A stretch of 64,000 nt of DNA, from positions 32,001 through 96,000 of IMG/VR virus record IMGVR_UViG_3300010158_000028. One strand, given 5' to 3'. A program made the translations under genes and the position numbers. This stretch comes from a virus. Below are positions 1-14,980 of this stretch, one piece after another (position 1 is the first letter of the stretch; each line of letters opens with the position of its first letter). A model generated the notes under the pieces. That model saw only the letters and a list, made by a program, of their open reading frames with translations, had not been told where the DNA came from and made no database searches.

Positions 1-437
1 CCACCAGATTCTAATCTTTTATCTGAGGTTGTTATATTCAAATTATTATATTCTTTTGTTTCAGGCCAAGTGGTGCCTCCTCTTGGATCTAAAAGAATTA
101 AGTCACCACATAGAGGTGCTGAATTGATATAGTATATACCATTGACTACACATGACATATGATTATGTGTGCCCATTCCTTCTAGAAAGTTATTAGAGGT
201 TACCCAGCATGCTTTTATATTGACTGAACTAAATTCATAGTATGGTTTAAAGTATTCGGTAACACATTCAAAGATCATTTTTTTAAATGTTATTAGAACC
301 GTATCATCTGTATGAAAATTTCTAACTCTTTTTTGTGGATCTAAAGTATCAATAAATGATTGAACTTCATCCAAAACTCCTAGATTATGAAAGACCATAA
401 TAGGTGTTGGGAATATATCAAATCTCTGTGAATTCAC
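1..437 (-). CDS. Putative 2OG-Fe(II) oxygenase (TIGR02466-like), runs off the left edge
   Basis: Hand translation from GTG at 437 (SD GGAG at 447-450): MNSQRFDIFPTPI...CWV...HNH...VNGIYYI...GDLILLDPR, typical of phage 2OG-Fe(II) oxygenases. Confidence 0.75.
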   Translation of the reverse strand, partial: MNSQRFDIFPTPIMVFHNLGVLDEVQSFIDTLDPQKRVRNFHTDDTVLITFKKMIFECVTEYFKPYYEFSSVNIKACWVTSNNFLEGMGTHNHMSCVVNGIYYINSAPLCGDLILLDPRGGTTWPETKEYNNLNITTSDKRLESG

Positions 438-475
438 TATAATTAACTCCTTGGCATAAAATTATATATATTGTC

Positions 476-1327
476 ATGATTATACTATTAATATTGATAT
501 TGATCGGCAGTAACACATATGCACAAACACTAGTCACTAGATCAAGTCCGGGTGGTACTGTTGATACTATCTCTAGAGAATTGATTAAAAATACTCCTAT
601 TGTTATAGAAAATAGACCTGGTGCTGATGGTGATATTGCTTTAGAAAATGTAATTAATTCTAAAGGAAATACATATTACATCGGTCAACTCAATGCATAT
701 CTAAAGTATTATATGAATATTGATGATGGTAATAAGAGTATTAATGTCCAAAAAGAATTTGATTATGTTGCCCATGTTGGAAATGTATTAAGTGTGATAA
801 TTATCCATCCAAATGTTCCAGTTAAAACTATTAACCAATTAATTCAAATTGCAAATACTAATCCAAATACTATAAATTTTGGCACTACAGGCAAAGGAAG
901 TACCTCAGATATTGTCTATAGATTACTAGGTAATAAATTCTATAACATACCATATAAATCTTCTATAGGTTCACATATTGATCTTATCAGTGGTCAAATA
1001 GATGTTACATCATCAACTGTATTATTATCAAGACCACTACATAAAATAGGTAAAATTAGAATAATACTCAAATTATTTGATGAACCTCTTGATGATATTA
1101 AAGGATCAAAGAATTTAATTGTCCATACCAATGTAATGATACTAAGTAAAAAAGGTAGGATTGATAATAAATTTAAAGATAATATCGTTAGTATAATAGA
1201 ATCTGATAAATTTAAATTAAAAATGCAAGAGAATGGAATATCAGTAAAATCATTGAATAATATTGAATATGATATGCTCCTGACTAATCAAATAAATCAG
1301 TGGAAATCTCTACGGTTGATTAGATAA
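476..1327 (+). CDS. Bug/TctC family tripartite tricarboxylate transporter substrate-binding protein (divergent)
   Basis: Signal peptide; PGGTVD..R, IENRPGADG, G.G..S, IPYK and GQID motifs. Confidence 0.8.
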   Translation: MIILLILILIGSNTYAQTLVTRSSPGGTVDTISRELIKNTPIVIENRPGADGDIALENVINSKGNTYYIGQLNAYLKYYMNIDDGNKSINVQKEFDYVAHVGNVLSVIIIHPNVPVKTINQLIQIANTNPNTINFGTTGKGSTSDIVYRLLGNKFYNIPYKSSIGSHIDLISGQIDVTSSTVLLSRPLHKIGKIRIILKLFDEPLDDIKGSKNLIVHTNVMILSKKGRIDNKFKDNIVSIIESDKFKLKMQENGISVKSLNNIEYDMLLTNQINQWKSLRLIR

Positions 1328-2359
1328 TACAGACCGCACTTGGTCTATAGTTGGAGATATTGATTCAGGTACCATTTGGCCATCACTATCTGCCCAACAT
1401 ATTTTCCAAGTAACATTGTTGGAATAATATCTCACAACATTAGATGATTTTAATTCAATATCCTGACCAATAAAATCAGAAAATACTTTTCTTGATTTTG
1501 TATAATGATTGGCTATTGACCAAGATTGAAAATCTGGTGTATCAAAGAAAGATTCAGTATTAACAAAATTGCCAGTTATACCTATAAACCGATATCTTAT
1601 AGAATACCATTTCATTACAAAAGATATCCACCAATAAAAATCATACTTAGTTTTTATCTCTATTGGTGATCTACTCATTAAACCCTGTAGATATTCTTCT
1701 ATATTTCTAAATGCAACCTTTTTATCAGAATAATATTTTGCCATGGCACTACTCTTAAATCTATTTTTATACCAAATGCCCATATTCATTGCATTAAAAA
1801 CTATTACCGATAAATTAAAAGGAATAACATTTTTACCCATATCAATACCTGGAAAATTGGATAACCAATAATTGTTTGATACATTATAAAGATATTTTCC
1901 ACCACTTCCGGTAATAACTTTAGTTTTTAATATATTACCATTCATTAACTCACTTAAAGGTACAATATCATGAGACAGATGTTTTATTCTCTCATATACT
2001 TCGGGTAAAGTCTGTATATCATTATCTGTTATTATAACATGAGGTCTTGCACCAACATCCTCTAATGCTTTAACAACAACTAATGATGATAGACCGGATA
2101 CCAATACATCTTGATAACCTTGGTTCTTTAAGTCTGTTGCCCTCTCATATACGATATCAGAGAAACTCTTTGTTGTTAAATAACTAGGTATAGGACATGG
2201 TGTTAGATTGAAAATACTTGGCACTGTTCTATCAATACCCATACCTGTGTTGCCTAAAAATCCTATTTGATATGCGGTTAGTGTGTCTGTGTAATCAATA
2301 CCCAATTCATCTAACCGATCAAATGTAGATGGATTCTTATATATTAATAAATTACTCAC
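1310..2359 (-). CDS. Degenerate PP-loop/asparagine-synthase-like protein (paralog 3)
   Basis: Shares DRT, F.D...RA, ITGSGG, PIEIKT..D..WW..F..KW and FFDT.DFQ.W blocks with its two neighbours; PP-loop decayed to VSGLSS. Confidence 0.6.
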   Translation of the reverse strand: MSNLLIYKNPSTFDRLDELGIDYTDTLTAYQIGFLGNTGMGIDRTVPSIFNLTPCPIPSYLTTKSFSDIVYERATDLKNQGYQDVLVSGLSSLVVVKALEDVGARPHVIITDNDIQTLPEVYERIKHLSHDIVPLSELMNGNILKTKVITGSGGKYLYNVSNNYWLSNFPGIDMGKNVIPFNLSVIVFNAMNMGIWYKNRFKSSAMAKYYSDKKVAFRNIEEYLQGLMSRSPIEIKTKYDFYWWISFVMKWYSIRYRFIGITGNFVNTESFFDTPDFQSWSIANHYTKSRKVFSDFIGQDIELKSSNVVRYYSNNVTWKICWADSDGQMVPESISPTIDQVRSVLSNQP

Positions 2360-3480
2360 TTCAGTAACTTTTCAATAGTATCTTTTGGTATTGTTTCAGA
2401 ACTTTTAAATACATTACCAACATCATCAATTAATCTAAAATACTGAGGAGGATTAGACGCACCACCAGATGCGGATGTTGATGCCAATGGCTCTTTATTC
2501 AAATAATAATCTTCATCATTGGTATAATCATAAATTATTTTCTTAATTGGTCCTTTTATTTCTTGTGTCTTTAATACACCATTATATGTAAGAGCATAAT
2601 TGATAAAATCTTCAGTATCGTAAAATCCTTTTATTGTATCAAATATATTTGGATTTTCTCCTCTTGTTACACATACGTTATATGCTTTACCCCAGCGTGA
2701 AAGCCAAATAAACCACTGCAGATCCAATAAATTATTAATTTCAACAGGACATTTATTCTTATACTGATTAAGTTGATCAATAACAGCATCTTTATTAAAA
2801 AATAAACTTAATGCATTAATTTCACCACGATCAATTGTAATTTTATCTTTAATTGTATTGAAAGACATAGTACCATCATCATCAAGCATTGAATAGATTT
2901 TAATTCTTTTTCTCCATGTATCACTTGTATGCCGAGGAAATGGACTACCATGTATACCCAATAAATTATATCTATCAGTATTTGCCATAAAAATAGAATA
3001 AACGTCACATATATCTTTTACTAATATATTCTTATCTTTAAGGTGTGTTTCATAGAACAATGGATATTCTTTTGTGATTGATGCTCGTGTAGTTATAATT
3101 TGTATTTTTTCATGCCACTTAGAATCTGCCTTCATAAAACTAATTAACATTCCAGTAGAGTCAATACCACCAGACCAAAATATTCTAAGTGGCGTTTTGG
3201 TTTCTAATAATTCATTAGCTCTTTTATCGCATAATTCTTCAAAAACTTTATTGCAATCACCTGTCATTTCATTGACATTAAGGGATAACGTGGGTAAATA
3301 ATTTTGTATAGGTAAATTTACAGAACCTGTTCTATCCAATGTATTATGACAGGAAAATATTCTATTAATATATTCATTTGATGCTAAATTAATGTTATCA
3401 TCTTTATTTTTTAATATAGGTAATAATTGATGTAATAAATCATCATTAAAAATTTTAATTTTGTTCATTTGGTGTAACAC
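2356..3480 (-). CDS. PP-loop (adenine nucleotide alpha-hydrolase/Asn-synthase-like) protein (paralog 2)
   Basis: FWSGGIDST PP-loop; EYPLFY; K.IY.YT.D..Y..NK. Confidence 0.7.
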   Translation of the reverse strand: MLHQMNKIKIFNDDLLHQLLPILKNKDDNINLASNEYINRIFSCHNTLDRTGSVNLPIQNYLPTLSLNVNEMTGDCNKVFEELCDKRANELLETKTPLRIFWSGGIDSTGMLISFMKADSKWHEKIQIITTRASITKEYPLFYETHLKDKNILVKDICDVYSIFMANTDRYNLLGIHGSPFPRHTSDTWRKRIKIYSMLDDDGTMSFNTIKDKITIDRGEINALSLFFNKDAVIDQLNQYKNKCPVEINNLLDLQWFIWLSRWGKAYNVCVTRGENPNIFDTIKGFYDTEDFINYALTYNGVLKTQEIKGPIKKIIYDYTNDEDYYLNKEPLASTSASGGASNPPQYFRLIDDVGNVFKSSETIPKDTIEKLLK

Positions 3481-4562
3481 TCCCTTAGTAATTGTTCACA
3501 TTTAGATTCATCCATATTAATTAAATGTCCGTTGGTTGTAACTAACCGCATACCTCTGATTAAATGCTTAACTGGTTCAACTGATCTACCCATTGACTCA
3601 TGTTGTAACTTGTTCACTCTATACTCATTATCACCAGTGAATTCATAGATAAAATCTTTTGCTGGTTGTTTATATGTGTTCCATGTATCACCCAACTTAA
3701 CATCTAAATTGGACATTGCCCATCGTTGGTAATATAAACTATTAAAGAAACTTATCTTGTTATCAAATATAGTTATATCATTGACTGCTGCTATGGCACG
3801 ACTCTTAACATGATCCCATTTGTGTGTGAAGGTTAACATCCAATATAAATCTGCAACTGTTTTAATAGGCACAGGAAACTTCTCTATCTGTTGTTCAATA
3901 TAATCTATTGTAATATACAACCGTTTATGTTTTTCGGTATGCAAATAGAATTCATTATGATTATATAACTTAGAGTAGTGTTGTTTCCTCATCTCACCCA
4001 TATCTCTCATAATGTTACACCCCCATATCTGATCACCACATGTACCATCAATAGGTAACACATCAAGATCAAATAGCTTCTTATCAAAGAATTCTAGATT
4101 CTTTAACATGACCACATCGGCATTCTTTAAGTAAGTATCATAGAATAGTGGATACTCTTCTTTGATGGCATACTCTGAGGTATAGATTCTAACTCTATTC
4201 AACCAATCACTATTTGTCATCATTAGAGCAACCAATGCAACTGTTGAATCAATACCACCTGACCAGAATACGCAAACTTTTCTATTACCTGCAACTGACC
4301 ATATATCTTCTGCAGTCTTTAATGATGTTTCAGTGAATGTATCTGAAGTATTAAACTCTGTAGGTATAGGTGTGCCATCAAAATTAAATACAAACTCATG
4401 GTTTCTATTAATTGGTCCTGATATGTTTAATAGATTACCAACACAGAACAATGCCATTAAATCAAAGACTCTTTCTTTTTGTGTGAGGTAATAGTCTTTG
4501 ATTGCTATTTGTATTATTTGTTCTCTGACTACATCATCAATATAATATTTTATCTTATGCAT
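3465..4562 (-). CDS. PP-loop (Asn-synthase C-terminal-like) protein (paralog 1)
   Basis: FWSGGIDST and DGTCGDQIWG (compare AsnB SGGLDS and GEGADELFG); no N-terminal glutaminase Cys. Confidence 0.75.
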   Translation of the reverse strand: MHKIKYYIDDVVREQIIQIAIKDYYLTQKERVFDLMALFCVGNLLNISGPINRNHEFVFNFDGTPIPTEFNTSDTFTETSLKTAEDIWSVAGNRKVCVFWSGGIDSTVALVALMMTNSDWLNRVRIYTSEYAIKEEYPLFYDTYLKNADVVMLKNLEFFDKKLFDLDVLPIDGTCGDQIWGCNIMRDMGEMRKQHYSKLYNHNEFYLHTEKHKRLYITIDYIEQQIEKFPVPIKTVADLYWMLTFTHKWDHVKSRAIAAVNDITIFDNKISFFNSLYYQRWAMSNLDVKLGDTWNTYKQPAKDFIYEFTGDNEYRVNKLQHESMGRSVEPVKHLIRGMRLVTTNGHLINMDESKCEQLLRECYTK

Positions 4563-5482
4563 TACTTCTTCATTATTGCTTTAGACCATTGTTTATCATC
4601 AATAACCAAAAACTCATGGAATTCTTTTGGTCCGTATGCCCATATGGTCACATTCTCTTGTTTAACTTTATCTTTCACATCCTGTTTATCTAATGCCGAT
4701 AATACTGCACTGGTTACTTCATCGGCAATTTTTCTATCATAATTCTTTGGTGCAACAATACCAAACCAACCAGGATAATTGAATGATTGTTTAGTCATCT
4801 CTTGAACTGTAGGTATAGTATTCATTAAAATATCACGATGGGTTGTTGTAATAGCAACTGCTCGCAACTTACCAGAATCAATATGTGCTTTTGTTCCTTG
4901 AATACCACTGACTAATAGAGGTGTTGAACCAGACATTACAGTCAGCAGTCCATCACTAGTGCCTCTATGTGGAATAGCCTCAACTTTAAAATTGAATTTG
5001 ATACCTAACTGTTCAATGATTAGATTATTGGCACCTGCAGTACCAGCAGAGGCAATATTAATAATACCATATTTCTTTGATAGAGTGGGCAACTCTAATA
5101 GATTCTTCATTACAAAATTAGGATGTGCAGATATCAAATAAGGATATGCACCAACACCAACAACTGCTTTGAATTCTTCTAGAGGTATGTAACTCAGGTT
5201 GTTTAGATATGCGGTGATCAATAAACTATTTGGTGTGAACAACAATACATTATCTCTGATTGCTTTTTGACGACCAACATCACCACCTGCGCCGCCAACA
5301 TTTTCAATAATAATAGTTTTATTTAAAGTCTTTGATGCTTCTTTGGCTAGAATTCTAGCAACTAAATCTGTACCACCACCGGGTGGAAATGGTACAATCA
5401 TTTTTATATCTGCGGCACTAACATTTAATGATAAAATCATGCCAATTAAAATACTAAACCAATTCATAATACTTCCTTTCAA
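4562..5482 (-). CDS. Bug/TctC family substrate-binding protein
   Basis: Signal peptide; IVPFPPGGGTDLVAR, IIENVGGAGG, GKLRAVA and WFGIVAPK motifs. Confidence 0.9.
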   Translation of the reverse strand: MKGSIMNWFSILIGMILSLNVSAADIKMIVPFPPGGGTDLVARILAKEASKTLNKTIIIENVGGAGGDVGRQKAIRDNVLLFTPNSLLITAYLNNLSYIPLEEFKAVVGVGAYPYLISAHPNFVMKNLLELPTLSKKYGIINIASAGTAGANNLIIEQLGIKFNFKVEAIPHRGTSDGLLTVMSGSTPLLVSGIQGTKAHIDSGKLRAVAITTTHRDILMNTIPTVQEMTKQSFNYPGWFGIVAPKNYDRKIADEVTSAVLSALDKQDVKDKVKQENVTIWAYGPKEFHEFLVIDDKQWSKAIMKK

Positions 5483-5976
5483 TTCAATAATGTGTTTAGA
5501 ACTACAACCTGTTCATTTACCTCTTCTGTTGTTGTTGCTGATTGTATATTGTTTGCAACATTTAATATATTTTGTTTTAGTGTTACATTATCTATAAGAG
5601 TAACAATGTTTTGAATGACCAAATGATTATTACCTATTGTATCAAGTGCATCAATAAAATGTTCCGTAATTAATTGTTCTTTTATAACAACTATTTTGGA
5701 TTGATCAAATGACCATTTATTCTTTTCAATATCAAATACAACATCGTTGATTTCTGGCTTTTCTCTAGTAACAATACTATATTCTGTAGTTGAACCTTTC
5801 TCAATTGGTTTACCATCCTCATCAATATAGTATGCACGAATCCATGTTTCTAATTCATCGGACCAAATAGAATCATATGGTAAATCAACATGATAAGGTA
5901 CATACTTATGGATTCTTACATCATTATCTTCAACTACACCTAAGTATTCACCCTTTGAATTTATAGCATAACTCAT
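5479..5976 (-). CDS. Putative tail fibre/adhesin assembly protein
   Basis: G.YLG start, W....W repeats, C-terminal IQSATTTEEV typical of fibre chaperones; adjacent to adhesin-like gene. Confidence 0.45.
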   Translation of the reverse strand: MSYAINSKGEYLGVVEDNDVRIHKYVPYHVDLPYDSIWSDELETWIRAYYIDEDGKPIEKGSTTEYSIVTREKPEINDVVFDIEKNKWSFDQSKIVVIKEQLITEHFIDALDTIGNNHLVIQNIVTLIDNVTLKQNILNVANNIQSATTTEEVNEQVVVLNTLLN

Positions 5977-6356
5977 TCTATTTTACCTATCAATTCGTTT
6001 TTGAGATTGTTAATGGTTTCAATTTCAGTAACATTGGTACTATCATTGATTACTGTAATACCAGTGGTTAATACTTGAACTTTAAAATCACTATTCACTG
6101 TAGTTAGAATTTTATTAATCTCACTGTAGTTATTAATCTTTTTAGAAACATCAACAATTAGATTCTTTAAAGCAGTTTGTTTATAATCTTCAAATACATT
6201 AAATGTTGATGTTGAACCATCTTCATATACTATTGATACACCATCTTCTTCAAAGGTTACTTTCTCACCATCATAGATAAATGTACCAATATTATATGTA
6301 TTGGCATTTTTATACATGTTGTATATAACTTTTGCTTCGTTTTGTATTTTAGCCAT
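5973..6356 (-). CDS. Putative tail fibre-associated protein
   Basis: C-terminal INDSTNVTEIETI resembles its neighbour; genomic context. Confidence 0.35.
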   Translation of the reverse strand: MAKIQNEAKVIYNMYKNANTYNIGTFIYDGEKVTFEEDGVSIVYEDGSTSTFNVFEDYKQTALKNLIVDVSKKINNYSEINKILTTVNSDFKVQVLTTGITVINDSTNVTEIETINNLKNELIGKIE

Positions 6357-6362
6357 TTGTTA

Positions 6363-7106
6363 TTACCATGTTAATGTAAACCAACCAAGATATCCATTTG
6401 CTTCTGTGTTGTTACCTGTTGCGTTATTGAAACCACTCCACCAATTTGATACAGTAACATTATTACCTGCATCACCAGTATTCCAAGCACTAGGATATGT
6501 TCTCAATTCAACTGAATTTGTTGATATCTTAGTAATTCGATAGGTGTAAGCGACATTTCCTTGAGCATAAAAACCACCTTCACCACCACTAGAAGCACCA
6601 ACATCAGTGTTAGTACTAACACCCAATGCAACAACATCTATACTTTGCCACCAATGGAATCTTGTATATGTATTAGTTGTATCATACCTATATTTTTGTC
6701 CATCAGCATTACCATTGTATCCTGCCGTGTTATCTGCTCCTCTTGCACGATATTGTAACCATACAGCACGAAGATCCGAACTTGGAGCTTGTTGATTTAT
6801 TTCTGGTCTACCACCCATTGCGGCAACTGTAAGCCAAACACTACCATCTACCCGATCTAATGAATATGCACTAGCAGCAAAATACTGTCCAACAGAAATA
6901 AGAGACTGAGAAATTCCAGATGGTTTTGATGTGCCATAAAAATTACTAAATGCAATTGCGCCTGATCCAGGTATATTGGTATTTGATGAATCATTAGCCA
7001 CATATGAACCACCTCTATAGTATTCACTCATACTAACAGGATTGGTTCCACCAAATTCCGTTTGTATTTCAGTTAATGCTAATGCACCAGAACTTTGAAT
7101 AGTCAT
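6363..7106 (-). CDS. Tail fibre tip/adhesin-like protein
   Basis: N-terminal MTIQSSGALALTEIQTEFGGTNPVSMSEYYRGG...IP.SG.I.FSNFYG, a common phage adhesin attachment domain; Gly/Asn/Trp-rich C-terminus. Confidence 0.65.
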   Translation of the reverse strand: MTIQSSGALALTEIQTEFGGTNPVSMSEYYRGGSYVANDSSNTNIPGSGAIAFSNFYGTSKPSGISQSLISVGQYFAASAYSLDRVDGSVWLTVAAMGGRPEINQQAPSSDLRAVWLQYRARGADNTAGYNGNADGQKYRYDTTNTYTRFHWWQSIDVVALGVSTNTDVGASSGGEGGFYAQGNVAYTYRITKISTNSVELRTYPSAWNTGDAGNNVTVSNWWSGFNNATGNNTEANGYLGWFTLTW

Positions 7107-7115
7107 TTAATGCCT

Positions 7116-7403
7116 TTACCAATTAATTTTTTCTTCTTCATCATCGTCTAATGATGGTATATTTATCGCAAAATCTTCAGGCTTTAACATATACTCGCCT
7201 GCTCTTCTGCGATTAAGGTTTTCTATAGCATATTTATTCATCCTGGAAGTGGCAATTCCTTCAGGTGTTCTATAGTATTCAGTCAATTTAAGACTGCGTT
7301 TTAGTTTGCCCTCTTGACTGTGTTTTCGAGCATTACCACAACTTTGACTACAATATGGTCCTCGTTTGTTGTGTTCTTTGCCACATCTTGGGCACTCTTT
7401 CAT
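7116..7403 (-). CDS. Hypothetical zinc-finger protein
   Basis: CPRC..H....YCSQSC followed by a NUMOD3-like HSQEGK.K.S. Confidence 0.55.
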   Translation of the reverse strand: MKECPRCGKEHNKRGPYCSQSCGNARKHSQEGKLKRSLKLTEYYRTPEGIATSRMNKYAIENLNRRRAGEYMLKPEDFAINIPSLDDDEEEKINW

Positions 7404-7621
7404 GCCAATAAATTATTGATATAATAAACTGCTTCAGCCTCGCTAGTGAAATATCGTATTAGAACTTCATCACTAGCAATAGACTGAAACAGTATCAATA
7501 CATTATCACCACATATTGAGAACTTAATGATCCATCCATTCCTAATAACAGGAATAAAACTTTTTGTATTACTTCTTATTGCCTGAAAAGGCGTAATTTC
7601 CTTGGATGATTTGTTTTGCAT
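7400..7621 (-). CDS. Hypothetical protein
   Basis: 73-aa ORF overlapping both neighbours. Confidence 0.5.
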   Translation of the reverse strand: MQNKSSKEITPFQAIRSNTKSFIPVIRNGWIIKFSICGDNVLILFQSIASDEVLIRYFTSEAEAVYYINNLLA

Positions 7622-7781
7622 TTTCTGTACCAGTTTCCATAAATTTTACCATACTATCTAAGTATGTATTCTTTTCAGAACCTGTGAATTTACTAAATGC
7701 ATCTACATATGATTTAACTGCACCAACCTGAACATCAATCAAATCTACTGCCAACTCTTGTGTTTTCTTTGTATCAAACAT
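7569..7781 (-). CDS. Hypothetical helical protein, phasin-like
   Basis: SD AAGGA; amphipathic helical pattern (LIDVQ...VDAF..FT). Confidence 0.4.
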   Translation of the reverse strand: MFDTKKTQELAVDLIDVQVGAVKSYVDAFSKFTGSEKNTYLDSMVKFMETGTENAKQIIQGNYAFSGNKK

Positions 7782-7860
7782 GATTCTTTTTCCTTAATGA
7801 ACGTGCTTCAATTAATGTTTCTACCATAATTTTAATGAAATTTTTAATCTTTTCTAACAT
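7774..7860 (-). CDS. Small hypothetical protein (28 aa)
   Basis: MLEKIKNFIKIMVETLIEARSLRKKNHV; SD GAGGA; promoter upstream. Confidence 0.45.
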   Translation of the reverse strand: MLEKIKNFIKIMVETLIEARSLRKKNHV

Positions 7861-7902
7861 TTTTGTCCTCTTTAGTAAAGGCCTCACAATGAAGCCTCTA
7901 CT

Positions 7903-7931
7903 ATTATATATCAAAAAATGACACAATGCAA
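7903..7931 (-). promoter_or_regulatory. Sigma70-type promoter
   Basis: TTGCAT-17-TATAAT in an intergenic gap. Confidence 0.6.
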
Positions 7932-7938
7932 CAATAAT

Positions 7939-8718
7939 TTAAGATGATATATTTACAACCTTCGCATTAGATATTTTCACTTGGGCATCTTCTTGTTGTA
8001 TCCGTGCTAAGATATAATCTTTTACCAATGATGACCTAACTATATCTTCAACGGTAAATTCAATCCGTGTAAATGCTGCCATATGCATAGCAATATCAAA
8101 GAACTTTAATATGCCACTCATATCATTCTTACGTTTGGTTAAATCTGTTTGCCTATAATCACCGCACCATATAATTTTAGACCTATAACCTACCCGTGTC
8201 ATAACAGTATCAATCTCTTCAAAATTTAAATTCTGCATCTCATCCACAATAATGATTGCATCATCAAAAGACATCCCACGGATAAATGAGGTTGATATGA
8301 ACTGAACATAACCTTGTTCTTCTAATCGGTCCCATGCATCTTTCCGATCAAATAAGGTATGACAGATTTGTTTGTATGGTTGCTGGTAAATATCCATCTT
8401 TTCATCTACATCACCAGGCAAGTGTCCCATCTCTCTTGACTGAACTGCAGACCTAACTACAATGATTTTCTTGAATGGATTTGATTTGTCTAAAACTTCT
8501 TCTAGTGCTTTGTATAATGCACAGAATGTTTTACCTGTACCTGCAACACCGTGTAATGCTATAAAATAATCACCGTGTCTATATGCTTCAAAGAATGACT
8601 TTTGGTTCTCTGTTAATGGTTGAAATGTTTTTAGGTCATCAATTCTGATTTTAAGTGTTTGATGAGTCTTGGTTGTTTGTCTTTCAACGACATTATTTGC
8701 AGATTGTTTTCTGGACAT
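7939..8718 (-). CDS. phoH: PhoH-family ATPase
   Basis: GVAGTGKT, GHLPG, FIRGMSF, DEMQN, GD..Q, DIVRS. Confidence 0.95.
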   Translation of the reverse strand: MSRKQSANNVVERQTTKTHQTLKIRIDDLKTFQPLTENQKSFFEAYRHGDYFIALHGVAGTGKTFCALYKALEEVLDKSNPFKKIIVVRSAVQSREMGHLPGDVDEKMDIYQQPYKQICHTLFDRKDAWDRLEEQGYVQFISTSFIRGMSFDDAIIIVDEMQNLNFEEIDTVMTRVGYRSKIIWCGDYRQTDLTKRKNDMSGILKFFDIAMHMAAFTRIEFTVEDIVRSSLVKDYILARIQQEDAQVKISNAKVVNISS

Positions 8719-9119
8719 ATTATTCCCTTTAAATGGGCTCTGTGTATTTTACACGATACCCAACTGTTATAGTATTCTTCAGATAACAAAGCATTTCTTG
8801 TAAATATTTCATATGTTTCCCAATAAGAACAAGGTGCTCTTGTTTTGCATAAATGTAATATTGTGCGTTTGAAATTCTCCTTTCCGTATTGTTGAACATC
8901 TTTCTTTACTTCATCAGAGGAAGACCAATAGGTCAACCAATCAGATTGTTTTCTGATTTTCTTTTTCTTACCTTTGATTTGTTGTGTACCAGATTTGGTA
9001 AAGAACTTACGACCGATATACTTTTTACCAGTCGTAAGATTCTCTATGAGATAAACGAAACCGTAATAGGTTTCTACATCTTCTTGTGTGAATTCAATAT
9101 TATTATAAAACCATGTCAT
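8631..9119 (-). CDS. denA: GIY-YIG nuclease, endonuclease II (DenA)-like
   Basis: YGFVYLI.N...KKYIGRK; SDW..YW.S; F.R.IL.LC; YYN. Confidence 0.7.
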   Translation of the reverse strand: MTWFYNNIEFTQEDVETYYGFVYLIENLTTGKKYIGRKFFTKSGTQQIKGKKKKIRKQSDWLTYWSSSDEVKKDVQQYGKENFKRTILHLCKTRAPCSYWETYEIFTRNALLSEEYYNSWVSCKIHRAHLKGIICPENNLQIMSLKDKQPRLIKHLKSELMT

Positions 9120-9135
9120 AATAATATATAGTCAA

Positions 9136-9282
9136 TTAGATATCTTCGTTTTGATATTCTTTATTTACTATCAGATATTCAGCACAGAACGGACAATATG
9201 TGGGACTATCTTCACAATCATCCTCATCGTAAATTATTTTATACTTTGAGTCACAATTGTCACAGTGATGTTTTAAAATCAT
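9136..9282 (-). CDS. Small zinc-ribbon protein (48 aa)
   Basis: Hand translation: MILKHHCDNCDSKY...YCPFCAEY; SD AAGGA. Confidence 0.65.
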   Translation of the reverse strand: MILKHHCDNCDSKYKIIYDEDDCEDSPTYCPFCAEYLIVNKEYQNEDI

Positions 9283-9292
9283 TTTCTATTCC

Positions 9293-10288
9293 TTATGATG
9301 CTTTCCCCCATACATCTCCCCATGAACCTCCTAATGCACCCTTTGCGTAATCTGTAGCACGATTCTCAAAAAAGTTTGTATGAACTGGTGCATTGATCAT
9401 CTCTTCAACCCATGGTAAGGGATTGCGTTTAACTTTATAAATGCCTTTAAGACCCAATGATATCAGTCTACGATCAGCAATATATCTTATATATGTTTTA
9501 ACATCTTTGGGTGTTAAACCTTCAATTGCACCTAGATTGAAACACAAATCGATGAACTTATCTTCCAACTCAACCATTCTCTCTGCAATACTATAGATTC
9601 TTTCTTTCAAATCATCATTCCATATCTCTTTGTTCTCTTCAATAAAGGTTCTAAACAACTTAATCATAGACTCAGCGTGCATTGTTTCATCTACAATAGA
9701 CCATGTAATAATCTGTCCCATACCCCTCATCTTACCATGTCGAGGAAAGTTTAATAACATAATGAATGAACTAAACAACTGCATACCTTCAGTAAATGCA
9801 CTGAATACAGCGATATGCGTAGCAGTATTATCTATTGTAGAATTCTGTCCTGATATATCTGTTACATAATCATGTTTCTCTACCATCTCTTTGTATTTCA
9901 TGAATTCATTATAGGTAGACTCTGGCATACCTAATGTTTCAATAAGATGACTATATGCTGCAATGTGTAATGCTTCTCTTGCTGCAAATCCCATCAACAT
10001 CATACGAACTTCTGGTTGAGGAAAATGGGGTAGATAGTTATTAACATAACCACCTGCAACATCAATATCACCTTGAGTAAAGAATCTAAAAATGTTTGTA
10101 AGAAATTTCTTTTCTTCGTCTGTTAGTTTCTTTTTCCAATCTTTAACATCTTCTAGCATTGGTACTTCACTATGAATCCAATGAGATTGTTCATGTTTCA
10201 ACCATGCATCATAGGCCCATGGATAGTTAAACGGTTTGAATGATACTCTCGTGTCTGTCAGTTTTGATTTTGTTTTTGCGGCGTTCAT
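9293..10288 (-). CDS. nrdB: Ribonucleotide reductase class Ia beta subunit
   Basis: Di-iron motifs EALH and DETMH, EGMQLFSSF, NFFENR..Y; likely start at the second Met. Confidence 0.97.
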   Translation of the reverse strand: MNAAKTKSKLTDTRVSFKPFNYPWAYDAWLKHEQSHWIHSEVPMLEDVKDWKKKLTDEEKKFLTNIFRFFTQGDIDVAGGYVNNYLPHFPQPEVRMMLMGFAAREALHIAAYSHLIETLGMPESTYNEFMKYKEMVEKHDYVTDISGQNSTIDNTATHIAVFSAFTEGMQLFSSFIMLLNFPRHGKMRGMGQIITWSIVDETMHAESMIKLFRTFIEENKEIWNDDLKERIYSIAERMVELEDKFIDLCFNLGAIEGLTPKDVKTYIRYIADRRLISLGLKGIYKVKRNPLPWVEEMINAPVHTNFFENRATDYAKGALGGSWGDVWGKAS

Positions 10289-10517
10289 ATTTCTTTGCTC
10301 CAATAATTGTTACATTGCTTTCTGTTTCTATCCATACTCTTGCACCACAAGATAATGGTTTATCTGGACTATACACTATTTTTGAAGGACCGTCAATAGA
10401 TACTTCATGACCATAAGTGTTTGTCTTTCCTTGTTTAACTGTAAGAACTGGTTCATTTTCTTTGTGTATTCTGTTACTCTTTATTATGTGTTGATTAACA
10501 TGAATAATAGTTTTCAT
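10227..10517 (-). CDS. Conserved hypothetical phage protein
   Basis: IHVNQH...PVLTVK...LSCGARVWIET. Confidence 0.7.
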   Translation of the reverse strand: MKTIIHVNQHIIKSNRIHKENEPVLTVKQGKTNTYGHEVSIDGPSKIVYSPDKPLSCGARVWIETESNVTIIGAKKYERRKNKIKTDRHESIIQTV

Positions 10518-10520
10518 TTT

Positions 10521-12329
10521 TTATCCTTCGCAAGCTAGACACTCGTTACCCTGAGCAATGGCAGTCATGTCTAATTCTTTAATTATGTTTCGTTCAATTC
10601 GTTTTGATATCTTATCTGCTTTACCAATCTTTTCACTACGGCAATAGTATAGTGTTTTCAGTCCACGTTTCCATGCTAAGAAGTGACAAGCATGTATGTA
10701 TTTGATATTTGCATCTGGTCTAAAGAATAGATTTAATGATTGTGATTGGTCAATATACAATTGTCTATCTGCAGCATGTTCAATTACCCACCGTTGATCT
10801 ATCTCCATTGATGTTTTGAATATATCTTTTTGATATGCATCTAAAATATCTAAATGTTGAACTGAACCATCATTAGCAATAATACTAGACCAGATATCAT
10901 TATAATCATTTTGATTAACTAAACCAGAATCATCTGCTAATTTAGTTTGAATGAATCTATCTAACCATTTGTTCTTTGCTAATGACGATCCAGATAATGT
11001 ATCCTGACGATAAGCATTAGCACGATAAGGCTCAATAGAAGGACTAGTGTTTCCCATAATGATAGAACTGGAAGCATTTGGTGCAATAGCCATAAGATGG
11101 GAGAAACGCAAACCACTGCCAACAGCATCTGGAGCTTCTCCTCTAAGTTGCCCCAACTCTTTATTGGCTTCATCTAGTTTACTCCTTATATTTTTAAACA
11201 TTCTAATGTTAGCTGATTTAGCAGAGGCACTTTCAAATGCAATTAGGTTCTTTTGTAGATACGCATGAAAACCGAGAGCGCCAACACCAATAGACCGTTC
11301 ACGCATAGCAGAATATCGTGCCCTTGATATGCTGTCAGGAGCATTATCAATGAAATACTGAAGAACATTATCGAGCATCTCTGCGGTGTCTCTAAGAAAT
11401 AATTTATCATCTTTCCAATCATCATAATACTCCAAGTTAAGTGAAGATAAACAACATACTGCTGTTCTATCTTTATTAGTCGGTAGAATAATCTCACTAC
11501 ACAAATTGCTTTGTTGAATCTTTAATCCTAATTTCTTTTGAAACTCTGGCATCTTAGCATTACTTGTATCAATATAATGAACATATGGTTCACCAGTCAA
11601 CATTCTATTCTCTAATAGTTTTTGCCATAACTCTCTTGCAGATACAACTTCACGAACAACACCTGAATTAGGATCTTTTAATTCCCATGAATCATCTGCT
11701 TGTGTATCATACATTGACTTCTCAACTAATCGCATGAAGTCATCTGTTACATTAACACCATGATGGAGATTCAATGCACGAAGATTTTGATCACCAGTAG
11801 GTTTTCTCATATCAAGAAACAATAAAATATCTGGATGTGATATATCTAAGTATGCTGCATAACTACCTCTACGTGTTCTGCCTTGACGATATGCTAAACA
11901 ACTTGCATCATATGTTTTTAGATGTGGCATGATGCCTACTGATTTATCATCTGAACTACGAATACCTAGACCAATACCTACACCACCACCTAACATTGAT
12001 AACCAGTTAACCTCCGATAAGCAATCGACCAGACCTTCAGCACTATCATGCAGATAAGGTAGAAAACAAGAAATAGGCAACCCACGCCTACTCCTCCCAA
12101 AAGAAAGAATAGGAGTAGAATATGACAACCAATGCTTACTGGAATAATCATAAAGACGTTGACCATGAGCTGAATCAGTTGCGAACATTTTTGATACATA
12201 AGCAAATCTCTCTTGTGGTAAAACTTCATCATCTTTCATGTAACTTTCTTTTAGTCTTTTCAAACCTAACTCATCAAACAAACTATCTCTACTGTAATCT
12301 ATTACTATCTCCGACATTTCATACTCCAT
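10521..12329 (-). CDS. nrdA: Ribonucleotide reductase class Ia alpha subunit (no ATP cone)
   Basis: SNLCSEI, IAPNASSS, KTLYY, C-terminal CLACEG. Confidence 0.97.
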   Translation of the reverse strand: MEYEMSEIVIDYSRDSLFDELGLKRLKESYMKDDEVLPQERFAYVSKMFATDSAHGQRLYDYSSKHWLSYSTPILSFGRSRRGLPISCFLPYLHDSAEGLVDCLSEVNWLSMLGGGVGIGLGIRSSDDKSVGIMPHLKTYDASCLAYRQGRTRRGSYAAYLDISHPDILLFLDMRKPTGDQNLRALNLHHGVNVTDDFMRLVEKSMYDTQADDSWELKDPNSGVVREVVSARELWQKLLENRMLTGEPYVHYIDTSNAKMPEFQKKLGLKIQQSNLCSEIILPTNKDRTAVCCLSSLNLEYYDDWKDDKLFLRDTAEMLDNVLQYFIDNAPDSISRARYSAMRERSIGVGALGFHAYLQKNLIAFESASAKSANIRMFKNIRSKLDEANKELGQLRGEAPDAVGSGLRFSHLMAIAPNASSSIIMGNTSPSIEPYRANAYRQDTLSGSSLAKNKWLDRFIQTKLADDSGLVNQNDYNDIWSSIIANDGSVQHLDILDAYQKDIFKTSMEIDQRWVIEHAADRQLYIDQSQSLNLFFRPDANIKYIHACHFLAWKRGLKTLYYCRSEKIGKADKISKRIERNIIKELDMTAIAQGNECLACEG

Positions 12330-12331
12330 TT

Positions 12332-12982
12332 TTATTGTTCTATAAATTCTTTTATCATAGGAAAAATTGGTTCAATTATATTTGCACATTCTATTGCAAT
12401 CTCTCTGTGTTCTTTTTGTGTACCGTTGCCACTTCGTAATTGTATATAATGTATCCAACTTCTCACTGTGCCATTCATGTATAACTTAGACATGGTCATA
12501 CCTTCTGGCATTACTGCTCTTGCTTGTTCTTTCGCAATACCATTATCTATTGCCCATTGATAAGCATTCATTGCATGATTAGATACTACTACTTGTTGCA
12601 TACGCCATTGATTCTCTAATTCTTCATTATCAGTTTCAATACTATTTTGACGATTCTTTGTATCTTGGAGTCTTGCTTCTTTGTATTCAACACCTAATAT
12701 TGTTGCATTAGCATATCGTTGACTAAACTCTTGAAAACTAAAACTACGGTGTCTTAAAATCTGTCGTGCAATATCTCTTGTTGTTGATATCTCTAAACAA
12801 ATATTGACAACCTCAAATGGTGACCAATGATTGTTTTTAATCAAATATTGAATTAACTTTTGAGAATTCAACATATTGTTTTGATTATCAGGATTGGATA
12901 CTCTTGCACAGTGCGCCACTTGTGTTTCTATATCACCGTCTAATTCATGAAACTTACTATAACTGATTAACTTTACTTGCAT
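12332..12982 (-). CDS. thyX: Flavin-dependent thymidylate synthase
   Basis: RHRSFSFQEFSQRY, HWSPFE, KEQAR. Confidence 0.95.
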   Translation of the reverse strand: MQVKLISYSKFHELDGDIETQVAHCARVSNPDNQNNMLNSQKLIQYLIKNNHWSPFEVVNICLEISTTRDIARQILRHRSFSFQEFSQRYANATILGVEYKEARLQDTKNRQNSIETDNEELENQWRMQQVVVSNHAMNAYQWAIDNGIAKEQARAVMPEGMTMSKLYMNGTVRSWIHYIQLRSGNGTQKEHREIAIECANIIEPIFPMIKEFIEQ

Positions 12983-12985
12983 AAT

Positions 12986-14017
12986 CTATACTTTCTTCCA
13001 AAATGTAAATTTAGTCTGTGCCCTGAGTCCCTCAAATGTATTACTACTTATAATATCCTGTAACTCACTTTGTGACATTCCATTCATAATCATCTCATTA
13101 ATATCCTTACCTTTGATTGTATCTGGCCAAATTACTACATTATGACCTAACTTGATTGCATTTTGCATTAACTTCATCACTTCTTTATTACGTGGTTCAT
13201 TATCATAAATCAAAATTATTTTTTTTGCATCAACATTTTTTGATGTCAATGCAAGATTGGAATCACCTGATGCTAGGCAGTTATTTAGAAACAAAGAATC
13301 AATCGGACCTTCCACAATATATACTGGTTCGTCTAGATTAACTCTATCCATACCATACACTAGTTTTTCTTTACTCTCATTTGTTCGTAGAGTAACATAC
13401 CTTAACTTCTCACTGGCATTTTCTAATGCACGACCAGATATTGCAATTAAACTGTTGTTTTTATCATAGAAGGGTATGACTAGTCGTTTATCTGCGGTTA
13501 TCTCTTTTCCATGCGATGGATATATTTCATCACAGAACTTCTTGTAATTATCAGTATAATACAACATACCAAGAATATCTTTAGTCATCTTACGTGATTC
13601 ACAATACTTAATACAGAAATGTTCTTTTGATAGTTTATCACATCTTTCTGCATTTTCATATTGCACATCGGTCTTTAATTTACCAAATGTAAATGATGGT
13701 ATATCTACTGCAATCTTAATCTTTTTATCTTTGAATACTTCACCAGATTTGTATCGTTCCATTAAATATTCTTTGAATAGACTACCATCTAATGTTTTAA
13801 TAAGATTGCCAATACTCATACTCTGTCCACAATTGTGACAGCGATAGAATAGATTGTTTACTTTACGGTAGATATAACCCCGCATCTTGTTGGGATTCTT
13901 TTTAGAATCACCACACAAAGGACAACGGCAAGAAAATAGGTAATCTTGCTTGCGTTGAAACTTTTCAAACCGTGGAGTTAATAGGAGAGTATACTTAAGA
14001 TCAATTGACAATGACAT
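12986..14017 (-). CDS. 61: DNA primase (T4 gp61)
   Basis: CPLCGDS zinc finger, CHNC, TOPRIM EGPIDS and DNEPR. Confidence 0.95.
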   Translation of the reverse strand: MSLSIDLKYTLLLTPRFEKFQRKQDYLFSCRCPLCGDSKKNPNKMRGYIYRKVNNLFYRCHNCGQSMSIGNLIKTLDGSLFKEYLMERYKSGEVFKDKKIKIAVDIPSFTFGKLKTDVQYENAERCDKLSKEHFCIKYCESRKMTKDILGMLYYTDNYKKFCDEIYPSHGKEITADKRLVIPFYDKNNSLIAISGRALENASEKLRYVTLRTNESKEKLVYGMDRVNLDEPVYIVEGPIDSLFLNNCLASGDSNLALTSKNVDAKKIILIYDNEPRNKEVMKLMQNAIKLGHNVVIWPDTIKGKDINEMIMNGMSQSELQDIISSNTFEGLRAQTKFTFWKKV

Positions 14018-14038
14018 GATTCACCATAATAAAGAAAC

Positions 14039-14067
14039 ATTATAACACAAACTACTCAATACAACAA
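14039..14067 (-). promoter_or_regulatory. Sigma70-type promoter for primase
   Basis: TTGTTG-17-TATAAT with extended -10 TG. Confidence 0.55.
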
Positions 14068-14086
14068 GGTTAAATTAGATGATTAC

Positions 14087-14326
14087 CTAAAATAACTTAT
14101 CTAGTTTAATGTGCGCCAATATATACCCAATAACAACTGCACCACCAAATATCATGAACCGCCACTTCTCAAGGATAGAAATTCTATCTGAGACAGAATC
14201 AAACTTTTCCATTAAACACCGGTGTTGTTCTTTTTGTTCTGCTCTAATCTCTTTTAATTCATCAACAACGAATTGAACTTTATTTTCCAAGACGGCTATC
14301 CTTGATTGAGTGTCTATCATTTCCAT
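14087..14326 (-). CDS. Coiled-coil plus C-terminal TM protein (XhlA-like/holin-associated)
   Basis: RIAVLE coiled coil; LEKWR followed by a hydrophobic helix. Confidence 0.55.
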   Translation of the reverse strand: MEMIDTQSRIAVLENKVQFVVDELKEIRAEQKEQHRCLMEKFDSVSDRISILEKWRFMIFGGAVVIGYILAHIKLDKLF

Positions 14327-14327
14327 T

Positions 14328-14537
14328 TTATTTCTTAGATGCCTTCTCTGGTACTTTGGTGCCTTCTAACTTTTTATGCACTTTGATTTTCTTGCAGTCT
14401 TGTGCAGTCTTACCAGTTTTCTTATCTACAACGGGTTTACCATCTTTACCTACACGGTCATGGCATACTTCTTTTACTTCTGCAGCATTAACATTATACA
14501 CGAATAACATCAAAAGTGTGGCAATTATGTTTTTCAT
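14328..14537 (-). CDS. Small secreted Lys-rich protein
   Basis: Signal peptide (VNA/A), two Cys. Confidence 0.6.
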   Translation of the reverse strand: MKNIIATLLMLFVYNVNAAEVKEVCHDRVGKDGKPVVDKKTGKTAQDCKKIKVHKKLEGTKVPEKASKK

Positions 14538-14545
14538 GATAGTCC

Positions 14546-14980
14546 TTATAGTGGTGGTTCTGCGGCAGGCGCAGGTGCAAGTTTACCTGTTGATGAATAT
14601 GATACTGGTGCTGATGTTGGAACAACTGCAGGTGCGGGTGTATATGTTGGAACTGGTGTTGGAGTAGGTGTTACAACTGGTGTAACTGGCGGTGGATTTA
14701 CTGCTGCACCAGCAACCTTCTCTTGTGTTCTACCATAAGCAGATACACCTAATACTGCACCCATTGCAACATGAAACAATCCACCACCTTGCAGTGTAAT
14801 TGGTACCCATTGTCTAAATGCATCATTAGCTGCTTGAACTTCCCAGAACTGAACGATAGTAAACATTATTGGAAACAATGCAAAGTCACACAAACAACAA
14901 AACATATACATAAATGCCATCATGGGACGCCACTTCTTTTGCATCCAATCTTCTTCTTTTTTCTCTACGATATCAGCCAT
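14546..14980 (-). CDS. Holin, GTA 3TM-holin-like
   Basis: KWRP.M...Y, TM helices, LG..AYGRT.EK; Pro/Thr-rich tail. Confidence 0.7.
   Translation of the reverse strand: MADIVEKKEEDWMQKKWRPMMAFMYMFCCLCDFALFPIMFTIVQFWEVQAANDAFRQWVPITLQGGGLFHVAMGAVLGVSAYGRTQEKVAGAAVNPPPVTPVVTPTPTPVPTYTPAPAVVPTSAPVSYSSTGKLAPAPAAEPPL

Follow-up and report, generated by a model that had tools for sequence, protein, structure and literature searches.

The window analyzed here, a 64,000-nucleotide stretch of viral DNA (bases 32001-96000 of the 161-kb IMG/VR record IMGVR_UViG_3300010158_000028, estimated to be 96% complete), carries a gene block in which an adhesin-like gene is followed by a gene for a secreted Bug/TctC solute-binding protein (TctC1) and by three paralogous genes (A, B and C) of a PP-loop enzyme family, hereafter the PP family. 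The paralogs are members of a hitherto unnamed family of predicted glutaminase-less AsnB-type enzymes that is found mostly in viruses and is recurrently paired with either a TctC protein or one particular cupin. We tentatively propose, at a probability of about 0.4, that they are amide synthetases whose substrate, a small carboxylate, is brought in by the phage TctC proteins via the host TctAB permease, and that they constitute an accessory module sharing a transcript with the adhesin. In this mechanism, TctC1 and a second protein, TctC2, would bind one or two carboxylates in the periplasm during infection and pass them on to the TctAB permease encoded by the host. Paralog A would then adenylate the carboxylate in the cytoplasm, with subsequent formation of an amide or lactam. 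Because paralog A has no glutaminase domain, free ammonia or an amine would serve as the nitrogen source. Paralogs B and C would act as partly or wholly non-catalytic subunits of a heteromer, and the cassette would sit in the host-recognition region, co-transcribed with the adhesin-like gene. The features of the block are as follows (aa, amino acids; AF2, AlphaFold2).

7116..7403, minus strand: 95-aa cysteine-rich small protein, directly upstream of the adhesin-like gene, a position kept in related phages.
6363..7106, minus strand: 247-aa adhesin-like modular protein with an N-terminal module of about 60 aa and a nearly unique C-terminal domain.
5973..6356, minus strand: 127-aa protein of unassigned function, with no family match and no homologue in the fetched loci.
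5479..5976, minus strand: 165-aa protein; its first ~95 residues characterize a family that lies between Gp38-like and PP genes.
4562..5482, minus strand: TctC1, orphan secreted Bug/TctC solute-binding protein with predicted export (PF03401, 119.5 bits).
3465..4562, minus strand: paralog A, 365 aa, apparently catalytic glutaminase-less AsnB-like PP-loop enzyme (from motifs and AF2 model).
2356..3480, minus strand: paralog B, 374 aa, PP-loop intact and acidic GDQ motif replaced (from motif alignment).
1310..2359, minus strand: paralog C, 349 aa, degenerate and without a PP-loop (from motif alignment).
476..1327, plus strand: TctC2, second orphan TctC-family protein with predicted export (PF03401, 69.8 bits).
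1..437, minus strand: 5' part of a 2-oxoglutarate (2OG)-Fe(II) oxygenase gene (191 aa in full; PF13759), running off the left edge of the window.

The seven genes from the adhesin-like gene to paralog C were found to form one minus-strand run from 7106 down to 1310, in which neighboring genes are separated by gaps of 6 bp or less or overlap (junctions 6363/6356, 5976/5973, 5482/5479, 4562 shared, 3480/3465 and 2359/2356). This agrees with the tightly packed operon described in an earlier note on this DNA, made from the sequence alone, which had also listed a second, convergent Bug gene. TctC2 is indeed convergent with paralog C and overlaps its 3' end by 18 bp, and both TctC proteins pass the Pfam cut-off. 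The gene order of the block is conserved in relatives of just 46-60% identity. In three of the fetched loci (L009, L012 and L086), Gp38-like, 165-aa-family, PP and TctC genes were present in the identical order, and the co-occurrence of these gene types in related phages, which had been set as a test of the module, was thus observed.

When paralog A was used as query, paralogs B and C were retrieved at E values of 2.6e-16 and 7.6e-8, respectively. No match at E 0.01 or better was found for the paralogs in Pfam (PF00733 included), NCBIfam or PADLOC. PHROGs gave weak matches over the PP-loop only, for example to the QueC-like phrog_1550 (6.6e-5, a region of ~40 residues), the PP-loop segment alone was matched in a profile search of the PDB with a paralog, and none of 156 relatives of paralog A in the protein collection was named. 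An AF2 model of paralog A built from a 48-sequence alignment (pLDDT 94.7, pTM 0.93) was used to rank folds by exhaustive VIA-align structural search. The top matches were beta-lactam synthetase (Z 12.9), TsnB9 (Z 12.9) and human asparagine synthetase (Z 12.6), followed by carbapenam synthetase (Z 10.8) and E. coli AsnB (Z 10.3). These five AsnB-type structures (1jgt, 7ylz, 9b6c, 1q15 and 1ct9) were aligned over 221-281 residues each. All other PP-loop families (GMP, NAD, LarE and TilS types) scored Z 8.7 or less, with values of 7.8, 4.9 and 4.5 for TilS, MnmA and QueC, respectively. Foldseek agreed with this ranking, and Atlas Asn_synthase clusters reached a TM score of 0.60. The N-domain ahead of the PP-loop comprises only ~70 residues, from which it follows that the N-terminal nucleophile (Ntn) glutaminase domain is absent; a cysteine at position 2 is also lacking. 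The N-extension of the 560-aa forms of the family, considered as a possible glutaminase, was ruled out because it is unrelated to glutaminase; it matches no neighboring gene. On the predicted model, the paralogs' family is one of glutaminase-less AsnB-type enzymes, nearest to beta-lactam synthetase, TsnB9 and asparagine synthetase. The earlier assignment to a glutaminase-less AsnB homologue within an undescribed system therefore withstood both the co-occurrence and the fold tests.

The family was recovered as 505 confirmed stretches in IMG/VR compared to 98 in approximately 185,000 species genomes. Among the 30 nearest Atlas clusters, 26 had no common Pfam family; the three clusters listed were 78-100% viral, and the largest has 804 members. 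The family is thus large and overwhelmingly viral, and its two highly specific partners, a cupin and orphan TctC proteins, suggest a coherent chemistry carried by phages into cells. Arrays of PP paralogs reach five copies. Tandem five-paralog arrays with differing motif decay were seen in T4-like contigs (L046 5059-11044; L026/L027 4668-12399), adjoining either gp15 and TerL or a cupin gene, and a P-loop kinase family (phrog_10255) often lies just upstream of PP arrays (L014, L015 and L025). In the DNA and protein sequences of 50,697 GenBank phages, no match was found with the region, paralog A or the 568-aa form as query. A family member from a T4-like context matched a single GenBank phage, Pseudomonas phage Cygsa01, at 24% identity. 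Cygsa01 (PP179332.1; L091 7073-9222) encodes two PP-family paralogs annotated as 'tRNA-specific 2-thiouridylase MnmA', a label that probably reflects the PP-loop only. Cygsa01, the Mu-like prophages in Xanthomonas and Undibacterium, and the Aquimarina and Lewinella cassettes offer cultured entry points to the family.

The MnmA labels in PP179332, together with the weak QueC-like match, could be taken to mean that the paralogs are tRNA- or nucleotide-modifying enzymes of the TilS, MnmA or QueC type. Those matches are, however, confined to the PP-loop region of ~40 residues, and with the whole model the AsnB, beta-lactam and carbapenam synthetases (Z 10.3-12.9) were clearly separated from these three enzymes (Z 7.8 or less). 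Moreover, a gene scan found zero tRNA genes within the window, and the cassettes contain no deazaguanine genes. A tRNA- or nucleotide-modifying function is therefore highly improbable.

The PP family is characterized by the motifs WSGGIDST, EYPxF, GExGDQ, FQxW, YKxPAKDFI and a C-terminal TxDxxYRxNKxKxxS. We tentatively take GExGDQ to correspond to the acidic motif SGEGSDE of AsnB, which holds the catalytic Glu and the Mg-binding Asp. Paralog A retains WSGGIDST, EYPLF, GDQ, the Q-x-W core of FQxW (as YQRW), YKQPAKDFI and the C-terminal motif; it has GTCGDQ for GExGDQ, so that the Asp is kept and the Glu is lost, a loss common to the whole TctC-linked clade. In paralog B, WSGGIDST and EYPLF are present, GDQ is replaced by GSP (GIHGSP), and FQxW is replaced by FINY. 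In paralog C, the PP-loop reads LVSGLSSL, GDQ is replaced by GKY (GSGGKY), and the C-terminal motifs are lost; almost none of the family signature remains. All three proteins are related, as first supposed, but the SGGIDS signature is restricted to A and B, with SGLSS in C. In the family tree, paralog B groups with PP709 of L086, and degenerate orthologues of paralog C were found in L009 and L012 (clade support 1.0). Since the degenerate state is common to orthologues in two relatives, paralog C looks retained rather than decaying, and it is probably a non-catalytic pseudoenzyme subunit.

TctC1 and TctC2 are divergent members of one family. They scored 119.5 and 69.8 bits to PF03401 (cut-off 27), covering positions 1-270 and 15-268, respectively, of the 274-position profile, and are 22% identical to each other; counterparts of TctC2 occur in L009 and L012. 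As judged by eye, 10 of 10 aligned phage TctC proteins begin with a hydrophobic stretch that leads into a small-x-small site. The TctC1 lineage comprises 19 clusters at 50-98% identity on phage-like metagenomic contigs, with an abrupt drop to 33% identity or less for cellular TctC, and by these sequence identities TctC1 belongs to a phage-specific lineage. No TctA gene (PF01970) was found in the 161-kb genome, and TctC1 and TctC2 are orphans, as are many bacterial Bug proteins. A literature search on phage-encoded TctC found nothing relevant. A close parallel is the PstS of cyanophages, a phage-encoded periplasmic binding protein that uses the host transporter. Here, too, an orphan secreted binding protein is encoded by a marine myophage that lacks the cognate permease, and the probable SAR11 host has the matching transporter family (PMC11796062). 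In contrast to PstS, the phage TctC proteins belong to the tripartite tricarboxylate transporter (TTT) and not the ATP-binding cassette (ABC) type, occur in two divergent copies with no more than 33% identity to cellular TctC, and are each paired with an enzyme. SAR11 populations, the probable hosts of the window phage, carry core and flexible TctCBA systems (PMC11796062; PMC11485210). Should the substrate be an imported carboxylate, phages would here be seen for the first time to exploit the TTT uptake route, and to do so in the most abundant group of hosts in the ocean.

The association between PP and TctC was recovered from both search directions. In pelagimyophage-like contigs, TctC directly adjoins a PP-family gene in 11 of 14 non-redundant cases. 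A census from the TctC side, made with a TctC profile from a close alignment and limited in reach by its search patterns, gave 14 IMG/VR loci, 13 of them with a called TctC open reading frame (ORF), and a PP-family ORF lay within 8 kb in 8 of the 14, with PP and TctC genes alternating in at least one of them. The most extreme enzyme-binder pairing among the loci examined was observed in a 96-kb viral contig (L179, IMGVR_UViG_3300032242_001655), in which the order PP, TctC, PP, TctC and then three PP-like ORFs runs from ~4650 to 14600, amounting to five weak PP-family paralogs and two TctC genes.

To survey partners more generally, ORFs were called in 79 viral loci and clustered, and the commonest neighbors were annotated. 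PP genes were collapsed at 60% identity to 46 lineages, and neighbors were counted within 4 kb. Another PP paralog was present in 25 of the 46 lineages, one particular Cupin_2 family in 15, TctC in 11, a glycine-rich Gp38-like protein in 7, and gp15 and TerL in 6. Of 75 bacterial loci, 42 have the same cupin family beside PP. Two self-contained three-gene cassettes were found in Bacteroidota, in unrelated surroundings and with phage genes absent nearby, one consisting of cupin, a 127-aa protein and PP, and the other of a 164-aa membrane-anchored protein, PP and cupin. Examples are L111 5823-7870 (Aquimarina longa) and L143 727-3000 (a Bacteroidota metagenome-assembled genome), with approximately 30 more genome loci. 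The 164-aa protein has an N-terminal membrane helix, and the small cassette proteins, which match no known family, could be substrates, carriers or immunity factors. They match the window's 127-aa and 165-aa proteins in size but are not homologous to them. In other phages and bacteria, the PP-cupin pairing stands in place of PP-TctC; since it is spread across the deepest branches of the tree, it is probably ancestral. Apparent PP-cupin fusions in high-GC genomes were rejected as artefacts of over-extended ORFs.

The partner cupin has an invariant histidine cluster and is putatively metal-binding. Its model is bicupin-like (pLDDT 91), and its nearest folds were (S)-ureidoglycine aminohydrolase, DUF861 proteins, BacB, gentisate and salicylate dioxygenases and SbzM. 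The matches are small-molecule enzymes throughout, with none clearly ahead of the others. The cupin and TctC partnerships, which have essentially no chance background, both point to small-molecule chemistry. The structures nearest to the enzyme do likewise, and on these grounds import of a carboxylate followed by amide synthesis is considered the most likely mechanism. A carboxylate-derived small molecule with Bug import, offered by the earlier note as an alternative to tailoring of the receptor-binding tip, fits the evidence better than tip tailoring does.

Beta-lactam synthetase, carbapenam synthetase and TsnB9 are among the best whole-model matches and have the PP-loop and the helical C-terminal domain in common with the PP family. 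Derived from AsnB but with an N-domain that is dead or put to another use, these enzymes act on small carboxylates via an acyl-adenylate, and their pathways also include Fe(II) oxygenases of double-stranded beta-helix fold. The PP family differs from this group in its low identity (8-12%), its N-terminal stub of ~70 residues, the lack of a PF00733 match, motifs of its own (EYPxF, FQxW and YKxPAKDFI), its mainly phage-encoded occurrence and its TctC and cupin partners. With AsnB (PF00733) it has in common the fold (Z 10.3-12.6; Atlas TM 0.60) and the SGGxDS PP-loop, but not the Ntn glutaminase domain, the N-terminal cysteine or, in the paralog A clade, the Glu of the acidic motif. Lasso-peptide cyclases of the McjC type are likewise glutaminase-less AsnB homologues that make an amide bond from an adenylated carboxylate. 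In contrast to lasso clusters, no leader protease (B-protease), PqqD-like RiPP recognition element (RRE) or short precursor was found in the window, the 79 viral loci or 80 genome loci, and solved cyclases were absent among the fold matches.

Several observations weigh against the proposed mechanism. The Glu of GExGDQ is missing throughout the paralog A clade, and its chemistry may for this reason differ from that of AsnB; at the sequence level, the family did not reach Pfam Asn_synthase. Given that TctC1 is at most 33% identical to cellular TctC, docking on host TctAB is an assumption. No partner-family cupin was found in the window genome, which makes the parallel with the cupin cassettes indirect. 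A purely metabolic role would also leave unexplained both the co-transcription with an adhesin-like gene and the presence of fiber genes upstream of PP in approximately six lineages.

It might also be argued that the block is no functional unit, and that unrelated accessory genes have come together in a hypervariable island, with the paralogs as decaying duplicates. Large plastic islands that mix fibers with unrelated genes are known from pelagimyophages (PMC7029224), catalytic motifs are lost in paralogs B and C, and the 2OG oxygenase gene is not conserved with the block. Nevertheless, the gene order is kept in relatives of 46-60% identity, paralog C has orthologues, the gene overlaps resemble those of a coupled operon, and the PP-TctC and PP-cupin pairings recur across deep family clades and in both search directions. 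An assembly of unrelated genes is thus very unlikely.

The 247-aa protein, first described as an adhesin, can be called so only in part. Its first ~60 residues are 48% identical (E 9e-15) to a protein at the syntenic position in L009 that hits PF05268 (Gp38). The protein itself gave no PF05268 match at E 1 or better and none to a hidden Markov model of Gp38-like neighbors, and its glycine content is 12% compared to 22-33% in the Gp38-like neighbors of the PP family elsewhere. In the N-terminal module (window 6927-7106), two short repeats end in ...SEYYRGG and ...SNFYG. The module stands at the start of 2816 cluster representatives, which range from 87 to >500 aa and carry unrelated C-termini; only one of these proteins is a full-length homologue of the 247-aa protein. 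A constant module joined to such variable C-termini is what modular receptor-binding proteins would be expected to show. The likeness to the T2/S16-type Gp38 adhesin lies in the relatives, whose syntenic proteins are glycine-rich and match PF05268, and in the N-terminal module that the window protein has in common with them; the C-terminal domain of the window protein is unrelated and without a Pfam match. A complex prediction for paralog A and the 247-aa protein scored 0.00, below the mark, with the partner folded without an alignment, and speaks neither for nor against binding. One 2460-aa protein contains 15 repeats of a segment resembling residues 166-221 of the 247-aa protein. The glycine-rich Gp38-like proteins beside PP genes (L023, L065, L070, L084 and others) have in common, across different phage backbones, two conserved cysteines and a C-terminal tail that hardly varies (...GKAI...NNSG..GATS).

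Two small proteins downstream of the adhesin-like gene had been described as chaperones, for which Pfam and PHROGs gave no support. For the 127-aa and 165-aa proteins, no credible match was found in either database, with sub-threshold hits only, to unrelated or unnamed families; what speaks for a chaperone role is their location behind the adhesin gene. The 165-aa protein has weak Atlas leads (0.80-0.83) to tail-assembly-chaperone families, and jackhmmer recovered relatives of it in L009 (271 aa, 5e-30), L012 (262 aa), L086 (305 aa) and L084 (212 aa). In all cases, representing four architectures, the family is flanked by a Gp38-like and a PP gene, and the protein possibly assists adhesin assembly or serves as an adaptor. 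Orthologues of the 95-aa protein (jackhmmer, E ~1e-52) were found in L009 (7809-8123) and L012 (5710-6033), each directly before a Gp38-like gene. Because its position is kept in related phages, the 95-aa gene is possibly the first gene of the conserved block; the protein has a weak match to phrog_1271 (HNH).

Genes for receptor-binding proteins or fibers precede PP in several further settings. Marine podovirus-like contigs have an SU10-type adaptor, a fiber, two Gp38-like genes, a cupin and a 568-aa PP. PP lies behind receptor-binding genes in the relatives of the window (L009, L012 and L086) and in L084, and behind a phrog_496 tail fiber in L062 and L071. An NlpC/P60-family protein is encoded between a 1690-aa tail-fiber gene and the PP gene in contigs of 184 and 231 kb (L071/L077 7042-7710). 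Mu-like prophages of Xanthomonas, Undibacterium and Comamonas have the order gp45, gp46, baseplate J, gp48, short fiber, one unassigned gene, PP, cupin and a 2OG oxygenase of PF13640, a different family from the 2OG oxygenase of the window. In these loci (L157 2901-10490 in Undibacterium, L172, L131 in Xanthomonas, and L165 in Comamonas), a DUF5675 protein follows the 2OG oxygenase. In Cygsa01, baseplate genes and three hypothetical genes, which possibly encode fibers or spikes, precede the PP genes. In T4-like contigs, the cupin-PP pair lies between gp15 and TerL, away from fibers. The tail-fiber association, seen in approximately six independent lineages and only a few-fold above the substantial chance rate of small phage genomes, is suggestive at most.

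The association raises the function that had been favored for the module at the outset, namely post-translational modification of the receptor-binding protein or fiber tip during virion assembly by the AsnB-like enzymes together with a cupin or 2OG oxygenase. Such a modification could be amidation of a side chain or of the C-terminus, a cross-link of the isopeptide or lactam type, or hydroxylation. PP genes directly follow Gp38-like or fiber genes on the same strand, often overlapping them, in several unrelated settings, and the 165-aa family always lies between the Gp38-like and the PP gene. Lasso cyclases, moreover, are glutaminase-less AsnB homologues able to act on peptides. Against such tailoring, Gp38 adjacency was seen in just 7 of the 46 dereplicated lineages, and the fiber associations are only few-fold over chance. 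The specific partners, cupin and TctC, are not adhesins and resemble small-molecule proteins; the bacterial cassettes have no structural genes nearby, and the T4-like pair lies between gp15 and TerL. The window adhesin is without the glycine-rich domain of the Gp38-like neighbors, and no RRE or protease partner was found among the neighbors. These findings make adhesin tailoring an unlikely function of the window genes. It is equally doubtful that the PP family and its cupin or 2OG-oxygenase partners form a dedicated machinery that places amide, isopeptide or hydroxyl modifications on the receptor-binding proteins of many unrelated phage lineages, with TctC here supplying or sensing a small-molecule co-substrate.

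Linkage to receptor-binding genes would also be explained if the enzymes amidated a carboxylate on an envelope precursor (uronic, 3-deoxy-D-manno-octulosonic acid (Kdo)-type or peptidoglycan), thereby altering the surface of the infected or lysogenic cell and blocking superinfection or re-adsorption. Envelope precursors are known to be amidated by AsnB-family enzymes, including LtsA/AsnB1 (on meso-diaminopimelate, mDAP) and WbpS. The site after fiber genes is classic for surface-conversion morons of temperate phages, as in the Mu-like prophages, and the host-recognition islands of pelagimyophages hold many envelope-synthesis genes (PMC7029224). Cupins are also common in nucleotide-sugar pathways, and CapF and phosphomannose isomerase were among the cupin fold matches; sugar-acting cupins were, however, not favored over others. 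Glycosyltransferase, flippase and polysaccharide genes are absent from the conserved cassettes, and envelope modification leaves TctC without a role, so that this reading appears quite unlikely. If an adhesin or receptor were the target after all, the module would add a new layer of host-range control.

A literature search found nothing on the PP family or on its placement beside tail fibers. The superfamilies are known, but the family itself appears undescribed, as do its arrays of paralogs, its partnerships with the cupin and with TctC, and its position in tail-fiber modules.

The window has ~32% G+C, and nearly every gene lies on the minus strand. A PADLOC scan gave no credible defense-system match, and a promoter and terminator scan and a search for the T4 late-promoter motif were uninformative in such AT-rich DNA. 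A short distance upstream of the adhesin/TctC/PP block are genes for PhoH, class I ribonucleotide reductase, ThyX and a primase, and the ribonucleotide reductase is 54% identical to its counterparts in several Pelagibacter phages. By these sequence features, the phage is a probable pelagimyophage with a probable SAR11 host. In pelagimyophages, of which a curli-like operon is a hallmark, large plastic host-recognition islands contain fibers mixed with unrelated genes, including many for envelope synthesis (PMC7029224).

The 2OG oxygenase at the left edge, which had been counted as part of the module, is a genuine member of its family: the full 191-aa gene scored 41.8 bits to PF13759 (cut-off 27) and matched phrog_81 at 6e-13. 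It forms, however, a separate transcription unit, divergent from TctC2 across a 38-bp intergenic gap, and no homologue was found at the corresponding position in the closest relatives L009 and L012. Its membership in the module is doubtful. Downstream of the oxygenase gene, to the left of the window, lies a gene whose 478-aa product has, toward its C-terminus, a region resembling HNH/endonuclease VII (L092 5403-6839; G000:C1 29403-30839).

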